Shown here: in pieces, positions 16,082 to 18,325 of the stretch
How positions within the stretch are numbered: the first letter of the stretch is position 1
Layout: each line of letters starts with the position of its first letter
Notes under the pieces: model-generated
Databases searched by the model: none
What the model saw: the letters and a program-made list of their open reading frames with translations, nothing else
What the model was told of the DNA's origin: nothing
Virus record (IMG/VR): IMGVR_UViG_2778261679_000001
Reading direction: 5' to 3' (one strand)
DNA length: 64,000 nucleotides
DNA from: an uncultured virus (IMG/VR IMGVR_UViG_2778261679_000001)
Taxonomy: Duplodnaviria; Heunggongvirae; Uroviricota; Caudoviricetes
Program-made: the position numbers and the translations under genes

Positions 16082-17356
16082 TCAACGTTTTTTGTTAAGT
16101 TTAAGCAGTTCTTTTGATTCACCTGCACGTTTATCAAAGACCTCAAATGCTTCGTTTGTCACCTGTCGAATTCGCTCACGTGAGATACCGTGGTTTTCTG
16201 CAATATCAGACATATTCCATTTCAATGTATCTGTAATTTCGTCAAGATAAGGAACAGGCTTACGCTTCTTCGTCTGCAGGTAAACAATTGAGCCTTTCCA
16301 GATAGGTAGGAATACATTTTTGATATCTTCAAGAATAAACGGGACCTTTACGTGTTTTTGAAGAATCTTTTTGTATTTCACTTCACTAACCGTCATATCC
16401 AGATTTATATTTTCATAACGAGCAAGCACTTTCTTTTCTTTCCAATTAAGACGTTCTTTGTGCTCTTTAATAAAGTTAATATCAAGCTTGATGTCATGAT
16501 TAATTACAAATGCTGCTTCTTTCCAAGTAGATACTTTTGTTTCTGTGCTTGGCTTTTTAGCTTTTTTCGTTGCAATTTCATATGATACGTCTTCTTCACC
16601 TGCTGATTTACTAGCAATCAGATAAACTTTCTTTGTTGTTTCTAAGTCATGAACTTGCTTCATTTGGTCATATTTGATTAGAGCTTGCATACGATCAAAT
16701 ACGGGACAGCAAAGCACTTTCTCAAAACATTCTTCACCGATCTTTTCAAGAGTCGATTGCGCCATTTTACCCTGCTTTTGGTAAGATTTCTGGCTTGACG
16801 CCCAGAAATTAAATGATTCTTTTGTTGTGCTTGCCGAAATCATTTGCAGATTATGAGGTTTAATACCAAATTCAAGAGCTTTTTGAAGAACAGGCAAGTA
16901 AGCTTCTAGTTGTGAAGGCTTACGCTTAAACAATTGAACGCCATGAGATTCTAAAAGTTCATTGATTTTCGTTGCTTTATCTTCGTCCATACGACTTTGA
17001 GCAAGCCAAGTGCTTATACCACGATTAAAAATTGGTTGAAGTTCTTCATCGGAAGGTAGAATAGACACATCGTTTTCTTCCAAATACTTTTCAAGACGAG
17101 CAAATGTTGTCTCCCAAGGCACACCTTGATTGTCAGCACCGATTTTGCCCATTACTTCGTATCTTTCAAACAGCTCTATCAGAACCGCACGATTGTTCAT
17201 TCGGGTAGGTGAGTTTTTATCTTCACGAACATTTCGCTCAATGAAGCCCAATAGATACTTATCCTCTTTCTCAGTTGGTCTACGACCATGTTTTTGGATA
17301 AATTTTTCAAGTTTCTTTACATTGTTTTTAAATATAGTTTCATTTTTTGTTGACAT
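16082..17356 (-). CDS. HA-like repeat protein with C-terminal sigma70 region-4-like HTH
   Basis: WETTFARLEKYLEE...STWLAQSR and FWASSQK..QKQGKM HA-like repeats; MSDIAENHGISRERIRQV; promoter TTGTAC-17-TAGAAT. Confidence 0.75.
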   Translation of the reverse strand: MSTKNETIFKNNVKKLEKFIQKHGRRPTEKEDKYLLGFIERNVREDKNSPTRMNNRAVLIELFERYEVMGKIGADNQGVPWETTFARLEKYLEENDVSILPSDEELQPIFNRGISTWLAQSRMDEDKATKINELLESHGVQLFKRKPSQLEAYLPVLQKALEFGIKPHNLQMISASTTKESFNFWASSQKSYQKQGKMAQSTLEKIGEECFEKVLCCPVFDRMQALIKYDQMKQVHDLETTKKVYLIASKSAGEEDVSYEIATKKAKKPSTETKVSTWKEAAFVINHDIKLDINFIKEHKERLNWKEKKVLARYENINLDMTVSEVKYKKILQKHVKVPFILEDIKNVFLPIWKGSIVYLQTKKRKPVPYLDEITDTLKWNMSDIAENHGISRERIRQVTNEAFEVFDKRAGESKELLKLNKKR

Positions 17357-17482
17357 ACTTCCCAACCATTGTTTATTTTCAGATAGTGTCCTAATTCTAG
17401 CTTAACTTTAAAAGGTGTACAAGATTTTTTTTCTAAAATCAAGCTAAAATTAGATCTCCCTCTCATTTTTTATTAAGTTTTT

Positions 17483-18325
17483 TTATGCTTTTCTATTAAT
17501 GTTTTTAACTTTAACAGAACGAACCAAGCGTTTATCGAAAGATTCAAAAAGATCATTCGTTACCTGACGAATACGTTCACGAGTTAAACCATATTCGTCA
17601 CCAATATCAGACATATTCCATTTTAGACTTTCTGTGATTTCTTTCATATAAGGCAATTTACGACCTTTTTCTTTAAAACTTTCTTCTACGACTTTTTTCC
17701 ATAGCTCTAACGTTAGTGATTCCAAATCTTTGAAATCAAAAGCACCTTTAATATGTTTTTTCAATATCTTTTTAAACTTCAATTCACTTACTGAAAGTTC
17801 TGTATTTACATTTTTATACTTTTCAAAGAAAGCACGTTCTTCTTTTGATAGTAGTTCTGACTTTTCACGAATTGAATCAATATCGTTTTTAATGTCATGC
17901 ACTACGACAAACTCAATATCATTCCAATTCGCTGCTTTATCAGCTTTAAATTTCTTTGGTTTCTTTGTTGTTACTTCATAAGTAAGATTTTCTTCACCTG
18001 CTTTTTTAGTCATTACAAGGAATACTTTTCGAGTTGTTTCTAGGTCAATATTGGTTTCCATTGAATCAAACTTAGCAACAGCACGTATTTTATCAAATAC
18101 AGGGCAACAGAATACTTTGTTAAATGGTTTCTCACCAATTTCTTCCATTACCATAGGGTTTAGCTTACCGTCTTGACTTTGCTTCTTCTGGTATGACGCC
18201 CACCAGTAAAAATCGTCATTAGCTTCTGTTACTGCAAACATTTGTAGGTTCTTGGGTTTTAGACCTAGTTCAAACGCTTTTGAAATTACAGGTAGGTAAG
18301 AGATCAAACGTTCTTGTGGTGACAT
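17483..18325 (-). CDS. paralogous HA-like / sigma70 region-4-like HTH protein
   Basis: aligns with C-terminal two thirds of 16082..17356 (CCPVFD, ETT.KV, LKWNMSDI); GLTRERIRQV; promoter TTGACT-17-TAAATT. Confidence 0.75.
   Translation of the reverse strand: MSPQERLISYLPVISKAFELGLKPKNLQMFAVTEANDDFYWWASYQKKQSQDGKLNPMVMEEIGEKPFNKVFCCPVFDKIRAVAKFDSMETNIDLETTRKVFLVMTKKAGEENLTYEVTTKKPKKFKADKAANWNDIEFVVVHDIKNDIDSIREKSELLSKEERAFFEKYKNVNTELSVSELKFKKILKKHIKGAFDFKDLESLTLELWKKVVEESFKEKGRKLPYMKEITESLKWNMSDIGDEYGLTRERIRQVTNDLFESFDKRLVRSVKVKNINRKA

Follow-up and report, generated by a model that had tools for sequence, protein, structure and literature searches.

Sigma factors, helicase-associated (HA) proteins and certain restriction GTPases each offer a described counterpart to part of the locus considered here. 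In sigma70, the region 4 residue R584 reads the C:G pair at -31 and E585 reads -33 (PMC2613000). The same region contacts the beta flap and activators, and Rsd requires region 2 as well as region 4 (PMC4598750). HA repeats (PF03457) are found on TniQ and TtrA proteins, where they have been proposed as DNA binders (10.1101/2024.11.13.623437). Among restriction systems, R1 is the sole specificity subunit of LlaJI, with a unique N-terminal half (PMC1459862), and McrB homologues bind DNA through unrelated N-terminal folds (PMC7680126). Here we examine P0001 and P0002, two adjacent genes at 16082..18325 of a 64,000-nucleotide stretch of DNA (the window) held in IMG/VR as an uncultured virus record (IMGVR_UViG_2778261679_000001), whose products join HA repeats to a helix-turn-helix (HTH) of the sigma region 4.2 type.

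We consider it roughly an even chance (about 0.5) that P0001 and P0002 function as stand-alone proteins that bind specific DNA sequences and repress by occupying them; the HTH would read a TTGAC-like subsite, and the HA repeats would extend the site. Within this proposal DNA binding is strongly suggested by the sequences, sequence specificity moderately so, and repression and autoregulation are put forward tentatively. The C-terminal HTH would place its RERIRQ helix in the major groove, in the manner of sigma region 4.2, with a probable preference for TTGAC-like sequence; one to three HA repeats together with a basic connector would lengthen the DNA contact; P0001 and P0002 would read related yet different sites, and would occupy promoters as repressors, probably including their own. 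Action by occupancy is favored because neither protein has a region 2, a flap or activator surface, a motor or a nuclease. The net positive charge of both proteins (+13 and +8) was counted in favor of DNA binding.

The HA repeat and the sigma4-type HTH are known; their combination and the connector match no Pfam, NCBIfam, PADLOC or PHROGs family. No published description of the family was found in the literature on PF03457, HA domains, McrB/LlaJI N-termini, or sigma70_r4 with McrB, and the main text of a McrBC census (CoCoNuTs, bioRxiv) contains no "helicase-associated" and a single, unrelated "sigma", although its supplements may list the module. On sequence grounds we regard P0001 and P0002 as members of an undescribed, putatively DNA-recognizing modular family built of known parts.

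The gene pair and its sigma-like HTH

The two proteins and their predicted modules are arranged as follows.

16082..17356, minus strand: P0001, the long paralogue, 424 amino acids from ATG, net charge +13
17153..17329, minus strand: HA repeat 1 of P0001, residues about 10-68 (hhalign 95.6%)
16937..17119, minus strand: HA repeat 2 of P0001, residues about 80-140 (hhalign 96.2%; Pfam HA E 6.5e-4)
16709..16915, minus strand: degenerate HA-like repeat 3 of P0001, residues 148-216 (hhalign 35%, E 4e-4)
16352..16708, minus strand: alpha/beta connector of P0001, residues 217-335, three short strands among helices
16118..16219, minus strand: sigma region 4.2-type HTH of P0001, with R393/E394/R397 corresponding to sigma70 R584/E585/R588
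17483..18325, minus strand: P0002, the short paralogue, 280 amino acids, net charge +8

The window is the start of contig C19 within a 2.48-Mb assembly. A preliminary description of this stretch had reported adjacent paralogues opposing the main gene direction, and this holds: the proteins are 46% identical over 275 amino acids (E 4e-87), and both genes lie on the minus strand of a contig whose 174 open reading frames (ORFs) are 89% plus-strand. At a second locus (L010), 97% identical in DNA to this region and with the same gene order, the orthologues give a dN/dS of 0.12 for P0001 (17 synonymous and 8 non-synonymous changes) and 0.14 for P0002 (14 and 8). Because of these ratios, and because each protein belongs to a 15-member cluster of near-identical proteins, both are maintained genes under purifying selection. 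Eleven public RNA runs contain 5-13% of the sequence words of 15000-20000, shares that constitute no evidence on expression.

P0001 runs from two HA repeats through a degenerate HA repeat, the alpha/beta connector and a helical arm to the HTH, whereas P0002 consists of a degenerate HA repeat, the connector and the HTH (residues 236-269). The degenerate third repeat is common to both paralogues and forms the N-terminus of P0002. The two extra N-terminal HA repeats claimed for the longer protein were recovered at the hhalign probabilities listed above when tested against a profile assembled from five unrelated HA proteins (32 canonical repeats); the middle and C-terminal family segments scored below 1% against the same profile. 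The Pfam HA cut-off is passed by P0004 (83% identical) and by P0005, with P0001 itself falling below it. Tandem three-helix repeats of the kind seen in P0001 are shared with SF2 helicases of bacteria and giant viruses, Streptomyces TtrA and HA-bearing TniQ; P0001 and P0002 differ from these in having only one to three repeats, joined to a sigma4-type HTH, and no TniQ or helicase core, the SF2 helicase core being absent from both chains. No catalytic domain was found in either protein in Pfam, NCBIfam, PADLOC or PHROGs.

The AlphaFold models are confident (P0001, pLDDT 85.6 and pTM 0.62; P0002 residues 1-195, pLDDT 90.6 and pTM 0.85) and show two three-helix repeats ahead of a third helical repeat, followed by a small alpha/beta connector with three strands, then a helical arm and the HTH. 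Residues 1-83 of P0001 align with PDB 2kta, an HA-domain structure, at Z 5.0 (root-mean-square deviation, rmsd, 4.3; 72 aligned; rank 22), and 2kta also ranks first among 48,161 chains compared with the P0002 1-195 model, in a weak match (Z 4.7, rmsd 5.0, 72 aligned). Neither model had a Foldseek match at E<=0.001 in the PDB or BFVD; the top four in BFVD comprised three helicase/HA proteins and one "helicase associated domain" (best E 4.5e-3). VIA-align gave the models no Z>=8, the lack of a match being no proof of a new fold. The connector had no Pfam match at E<=1, and the P0002 core model matched no chain at Z>=5. An AP2-type domain, with a three-stranded sheet plus helix, was considered for the connector; no PF00847 match exists in the genome at E<=1, and a mitoribosome chain of Toxoplasma, matched at Z 4.1, could not be recognized as AP2.

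The motif on which the comparison with sigma factors turns, MSDI followed by G(I/L)(S/T)RERIRQV, is present in both paralogues as first described, with four rather than five intervening residues, and it lies near the end of each protein, about 25 residues from the C-terminus, rather than at the end itself. Its P0002 equivalents of sigma70 R584/E585/R588 are R249/E250/R253. The predicted HTH fold is supported by AlphaFold helices at 382-389 and 393-413 of P0001 (pLDDT about 90) and is of the sigma-4 type: the whole P0001 model aligns with sigmaE region 4 in 2h27 (Z 5.4, rmsd 3.7, 67 aligned) and with sigmaA region 4 in 4g6d (Z 5.0, rmsd 2.4, 58 aligned). The likeness to sigma70 region 4 lies in an HTH whose T/S-R-E-R-I-R-Q helix keeps the residues reading -33 and -31.

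As to the remainder of a sigma factor, sigma70 differs in having regions 2 and 3, a 4.1 helix, and a C-terminal patch that is basic rather than acidic. Region 2 had been reported as lacking, which we corroborate: Sigma70_r2 (PF04542) has three matches in the genome, none of them on contig C19, and none in P0001 or P0002 at E<=10, and the P0001 model has HA repeats and a beta connector where region 2 would be. Aligned with the assembly's own RpoD and Thermus SigA, neither protein has a counterpart of the RpoD 4.1 helix. The positions of sigma70 K593, R596, K597 and R599, which we take to be activator contacts, are occupied by E402, E405, V406 and D408 in P0001 and by D258, E261, S262 and D264 in P0002. 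RER[IV]RQ is kept in six of the seven family rows compared, at an overall identity of about 20-25%, and conservation, as far as the alignment indicates, falls on the DNA face of the helix and not on its protein-facing surface. Judged by their sequences, P0001 and P0002 are not sigma factors, in agreement with the preliminary description.

The same evidence bears on the idea, also raised there, that the pair are decoys for factors that bind sigma region 4. As protein mimics of this region they might sequester Rsd, an anti-sigma factor or a class II activator, or attach to the beta flap. Group 1/2 sigma factors do rank first when the family profile is compared with solved structures (best E 3.2e-4), and the C-terminal helices do superpose on sigma region 4. 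Yet the Pfam Sigma70_r4 (PF04545) match is confined to positions 21-46 of the 50 in the profile (E 1.3e-4 and 7.3e-4); only the 4.2 HTH is kept; the 4.1 helix is replaced, the basic patch is acidic or neutral, Rsd needs regions 2 and 4 (PMC4598750), and the DNA face is the conserved part. We regard a decoy function as highly improbable.

Sigma4-like HTHs are also found in smaller proteins. Phage sigma4-only proteins of 74-109 amino acids with PF04545 appear as ESM Atlas neighbors (scores 0.81-0.85, leads only), the Atlas itself giving no usable match for P0001, and the P0001 model aligns with the complex of the plasmid repressor KorA and its operator at Z 5.2 (rmsd 2.3, 63 aligned). The sequence relationship of these small phage and plasmid proteins to P0001 and P0002 is limited to the HTH, and the latter are larger and multi-module, with the HTH embedded in HA repeats and a novel connector. 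We also note a 316-amino-acid hypothetical protein of the megaplasmid pMPPla107 (L020:4968-5918, beside dnaE) with an N-terminal sigma4-like TRERVRQ, otherwise unrelated to P0001 and P0002. From such sequence comparisons, an RERIRQ-type helix does not appear to be rare outside sigma factors.

Relatives and fusions to LlaJI.R1/McrB-type GTPases

A protein search of 1.84 billion representatives returned 14 matches, seven at E<=1e-10: two close relatives, six proteins matching over a long stretch or at the C-terminus (P0005-P0009 and P0012), and six matching in the HA repeats only. Relatives of P0001 were found in none of 72,556 plasmids, 50,697 phage records or IMG/VR, and the full module neither in pMPPla107 nor among the same plasmids. 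For the P0005 module, P0007, P0008 and P0009, the collections tried gave only unrelated weak matches or the GTPase part, and word-index protein searches recovered near relatives and P0008 only. A second copy of the core (third repeat plus connector), lacking the HTH, is present in P0008 (E 1e-14, with P0008 excluded from the profile); P0007 stops short of the HTH, and P0012 combines HA repeats with the HTH but has a zero score for the core. The core appears, from these arrangements, to be a movable unit.

In P0005 and P0006 the whole module (about 410 amino acids) stands N-terminal to an AAA+ GTPase with a Walker A motif and an NTSD McrB signature. These GTPases are 32-40% identical to R1 subunits of LlaJI-type systems, and match McrB as well as type II restriction models of PADLOC (E 1e-34 to 1e-39). 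The fused GTPase has 339 plasmid matches; all three loci examined comprise one or more methyltransferases, an AAA ATPase and a following gene, which in two of the three bears a LlaJI-family endonuclease annotation; one of the loci is on the lactococcal plasmid pNP40. The module thus fills the slot before the GTPase that in LlaJI.R1 and McrB proteins is held by N-terminal domains such as B3, DUF3578 or YTH, although it is unrelated to these in fold and much longer. Because it stands where a LlaJI.R1/McrB GTPase normally has its N-terminal specificity domain, the module is read as a probable DNA-recognition unit. The two fusions share 64% identity in the GTPase and 32% in the module, and the fusion is therefore old; a module that diverges faster than its GTPase would follow the pattern expected of a specificity domain. 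By analogy, these two sequences provide what we consider the best evidence that the module recognizes DNA.

This raises the possibility that P0001 and P0002 are detached LlaJI/McrB-type specificity modules, which might shield plasmid sites from restriction or aim a motor-nuclease in trans. Two homologues are indeed LlaJI.R1-type fusions, and shielding of sites would presumably help a plasmid entering new hosts. Unlike LlaJI and McrBC, however, the window proteins have no GTPase (the McrB-type AAA+ GTPase with its NxxD signature is absent from both), and among the 85 window ORFs scanned no R2/McrC, methyltransferase, nuclease or SF2 helicase gene neighbors the pair. When the assembly was searched by tblastn with both fused GTPases plus three R1 and three R2 proteins, neither a motor nor a nuclease of LlaJI type turned up at E<=1e-3, though the element may be incomplete; a different contig, C2, holds two methyltransferase-like matches. 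Of the six full-module distant homologues listed, four are unfused, and a small tree of the core groups P0001 and P0002 with P0008, apart from the fusions (support 0.82). We consider a detached restriction specificity role unlikely.

Alternatively, the pair might be low-specificity DNA organizers, nucleoid-like or maintenance factors of a megaplasmid, in which HTH and HA repeats merely add affinity. The several small helical modules, the basic charge and the failure to find an operator motif would suit such a role, but conservation within the family is highest at the base-reading R and E of the recognition helix, and a family this rare (14 matches in 1.84 billion), with its full module in 0 of 72,556 plasmids, is unlike a core maintenance gene. 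This explanation is, in our view, quite improbable.

Promoters, palindromes and candidate operators

Upstream of the two genes, and between P0001 and its convergent neighbors, we note the following predicted features.

17394..17422, minus strand: predicted P0001 promoter, TTGTAC-17-TAGAAT, 43 nucleotides before ATG
18360..18388, minus strand: predicted P0002 promoter, TTGACT-17-TAAATT, -10 about 40 nucleotides before ATG
18379..18407: perfect 10-bp inverted repeat with a 9-nucleotide spacer, one arm of which holds the -35 of P0002 (TTGACT)
16034..16063: bidirectional terminator-like hairpin between P0001 and convergent plus-strand genes

Each gene has its own predicted promoter, as had been proposed; both are consensus matches only, with spacing typical of the contig, and a regional consensus promoter scan gave no excess (32 matches against 30.3 in shuffles). 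The P0002 promoter is among the few on the contig with C at -31. The inverted repeat at 18379..18407 is a candidate autoregulatory site and our only operator candidate, suggestive at most, and it is not unique: 133 intergenic regions contain 33 perfect repeats of at least 10 bp, against about two in shuffles.

The window from 3660 to 61361 and the rest of C19 are cassette-like, most genes having their own TTGnTT-17-TATAAT promoter 35-45 nucleotides before ATG; in about one in six C19 genes the -35 is the 5' arm of the preceding gene's terminator hairpin. Among 66 promoters anchored on TATAAT alone, T, T and G occur at the 17-nucleotide spacing in 98, 88 and 82%, and the full TTG in 50; in those 50, -31 is T in 41 and C in four, against a background for C of 12-14%. 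On the other contigs of the element C stands at -31 in 17 of 130, and the contigs of the binned host lack the TTGnTT-17-TATAAT pattern (2 of 53). TTGACA is absent from the 12 commonest -35 hexamers, and was found in 0 of 84 even in a scan favoring it. The contig's promoters would thus seem to lack the base read by the conserved Arg in sigma70, for which a T-rich spacer may be part of the explanation.

The preliminary description had named the many sigma70 promoters of this stretch as obvious targets, notably those with a TTG...CAA palindrome at -35, and had suggested a switch of the accessory region or of host promoters. A further possibility is, accordingly, that the pair form a master switch of the accessory region that acts through these palindromes. 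The palindromes singled out at 35036-35070 and 20338-20371 do exist, there is one strong sigma70-type promoter per gene, and the pair is oriented against the prevailing gene direction. A hairpin lies over the -35 at 16 of 98 promoter-like sites on the contig. Loops, however, range from 3 to 7 nucleotides and sequences vary; a G-T(U) pair occurs in the predicted stem of 14 of the 16, several at the first T of TTG mid-stem and few terminal, the hairpin at 35036 being among the two that lack one; most continue into a T-tract; and 15 of the 16 follow a co-directional gene (one was not assessed). Because of these varied sequences and loops, G-U pairs, T-tracts and positions, the palindromes resemble intrinsic terminators, with a 5' arm that also serves as the -35 of the following promoter, rather than operators. 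Together with the rarity of C at -31, this makes a master switch very unlikely.

Several results weigh against reading P0001 and P0002 as sequence-specific repressors. The Sigma70_r4 scores of 21.8 and 19.5 bits fall below the cut-off of 24.1, and the structural matches are all middling (Z 4.7-5.7). TTG-N9-CAA, the best of 15 spacings tried in a TTG-Nk-CAA search of C19 (k 0-14), is enriched in intergenic C19 DNA, at 22 occurrences against 10.2 +/- 3.1 (z 3.8), a result that also favors the master switch; we tentatively ascribe it to terminator stems. No operator motif shared by the two genes was found, a 12-mer common to both upstream regions occurring three times in the genome, once intragenically, and divergent TTGAC pairs (k 3-15) show no favored spacing. 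Overall, the preliminary description was right on the anatomy of the pair and probably right on DNA binding, and probably wrong on decoys and palindromic targets.

The carrier element and what the pair may do for it

Nine contigs of the assembly (C1, C2, C11, C12, C15, C19, C21, C22 and C25), 1.23 Mb in total, share a content of guanine plus cytosine (GC) of 26-31% and short ORFs, and are joined only by GC and common paralogue families; paralogues of C19 proteins occur on all eight of the others and, in one case, on a host-like contig. Several carry tRNA arrays, with 39 tRNAs on C1, ten tRNA-Glu in a row, and one permuted transfer-messenger RNA. DnaE, PolI, ligase, MutS, RecN, FtsH, ClpB and DnaK were recognized by eye, of which DnaE and DnaK were confirmed; two sigma factors of extracytoplasmic-function size were found, and RNA polymerase beta was not.

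Megaplasmids of the pMPPla107/pBASL58 type carry repeated tRNAs and housekeeping genes (10.1101/385575). The element resembles these Pseudomonas megaplasmids in a size of about 1 Mb, low GC, arrays of repeated-isoacceptor tRNAs, DnaE and the lack of RNA polymerase beta, and differs in being marine and in its DnaE, which is only 34% identical. By bit score this DnaE matches pMPPla107 (461) and pBASL58 (455) best, slightly ahead of E. coli (about 450). In 40 genomes of the order of the binned host there were four matches, each to the HTH region of an RpoD-sized frame of 505-663 amino acids, and the module occurred in none. We infer that the carrier is a giant (>1.2 Mb) plasmid that belongs to a marine gammaproteobacterium and was wrongly binned with an unrelated genome, and that P0001 and P0002 sit in its cargo region.

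Other genes of the element are recorded here in their own right. A predicted secreted family (window 32569-33606 and C19 91653-92897) has at least 15 paralogues across the element, its only plasmid match being a weak one (E 1e-4) to a pMPPla107 "fibrinogen-like YCDxxxxGGGW" protein. A tRNA called by ARAGORN at G000:C11:30399-30475, within an element tRNA array, has a CTA anticodon (amber suppressor-like). The 338-amino-acid protein at window 51917-52933, with tandem cysteine-rich repeats (CGH...C..C), a paralogue on C12 and no Pfam match, is possibly a zinc-ribbon repeat DNA binder. Cargo at 7694-8098, 10045-11522, 27373-29286, 37379-38566, 43501-44256 and 46727-47380 is annotated as NUDIX hydrolase, metallophosphoesterase, S-adenosylmethionine decarboxylase, methyl-accepting chemotaxis protein, trypsin-like protease, HAD_SAK_2 phosphatase and 8-oxoguanine glycosylase-like protein. 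An HPr-like phosphocarrier gene, recognized by eye, lies on the same contig as the pair (G000:C19:96630-96908); HPr is reported to antagonize Rsd (PMC4598750), and the element may touch sigma70 availability by this second route.

We also entertain, as a long shot, a more specific version of promoter occupancy, in which P0001 and P0002 are self-sparing occluders of the -35. Their helix would need TTGAC (G at -33, C at -31), present in strong host promoters and dropped by those of the megaplasmid; host housekeeping transcription would be dampened and RNA polymerase freed for the plasmid's many promoters, and the inverted repeat that carries TTGACT upstream of P0002 would let the proteins limit themselves.

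If P0001 and P0002 are only local, autoregulated repressors, their interest would be modest. The fusions P0005 and P0006 nonetheless present a candidate new specificity domain for McrB/LlaJI, a family with known N-terminal swapping, and offer a clean test of whether sigma's -35-reading helix can aim other machines; if the pair are indeed occluders, the LlaJI/McrB fusions of their relatives would amount to a restriction enzyme aimed by a sigma-derived helix. Were host promoters blocked and plasmid ones spared, this would be a simple redirection of host RNA polymerase by a megabase plasmid, and the blocking of host promoters would supply a long-sought cost mechanism for megabase plasmids.

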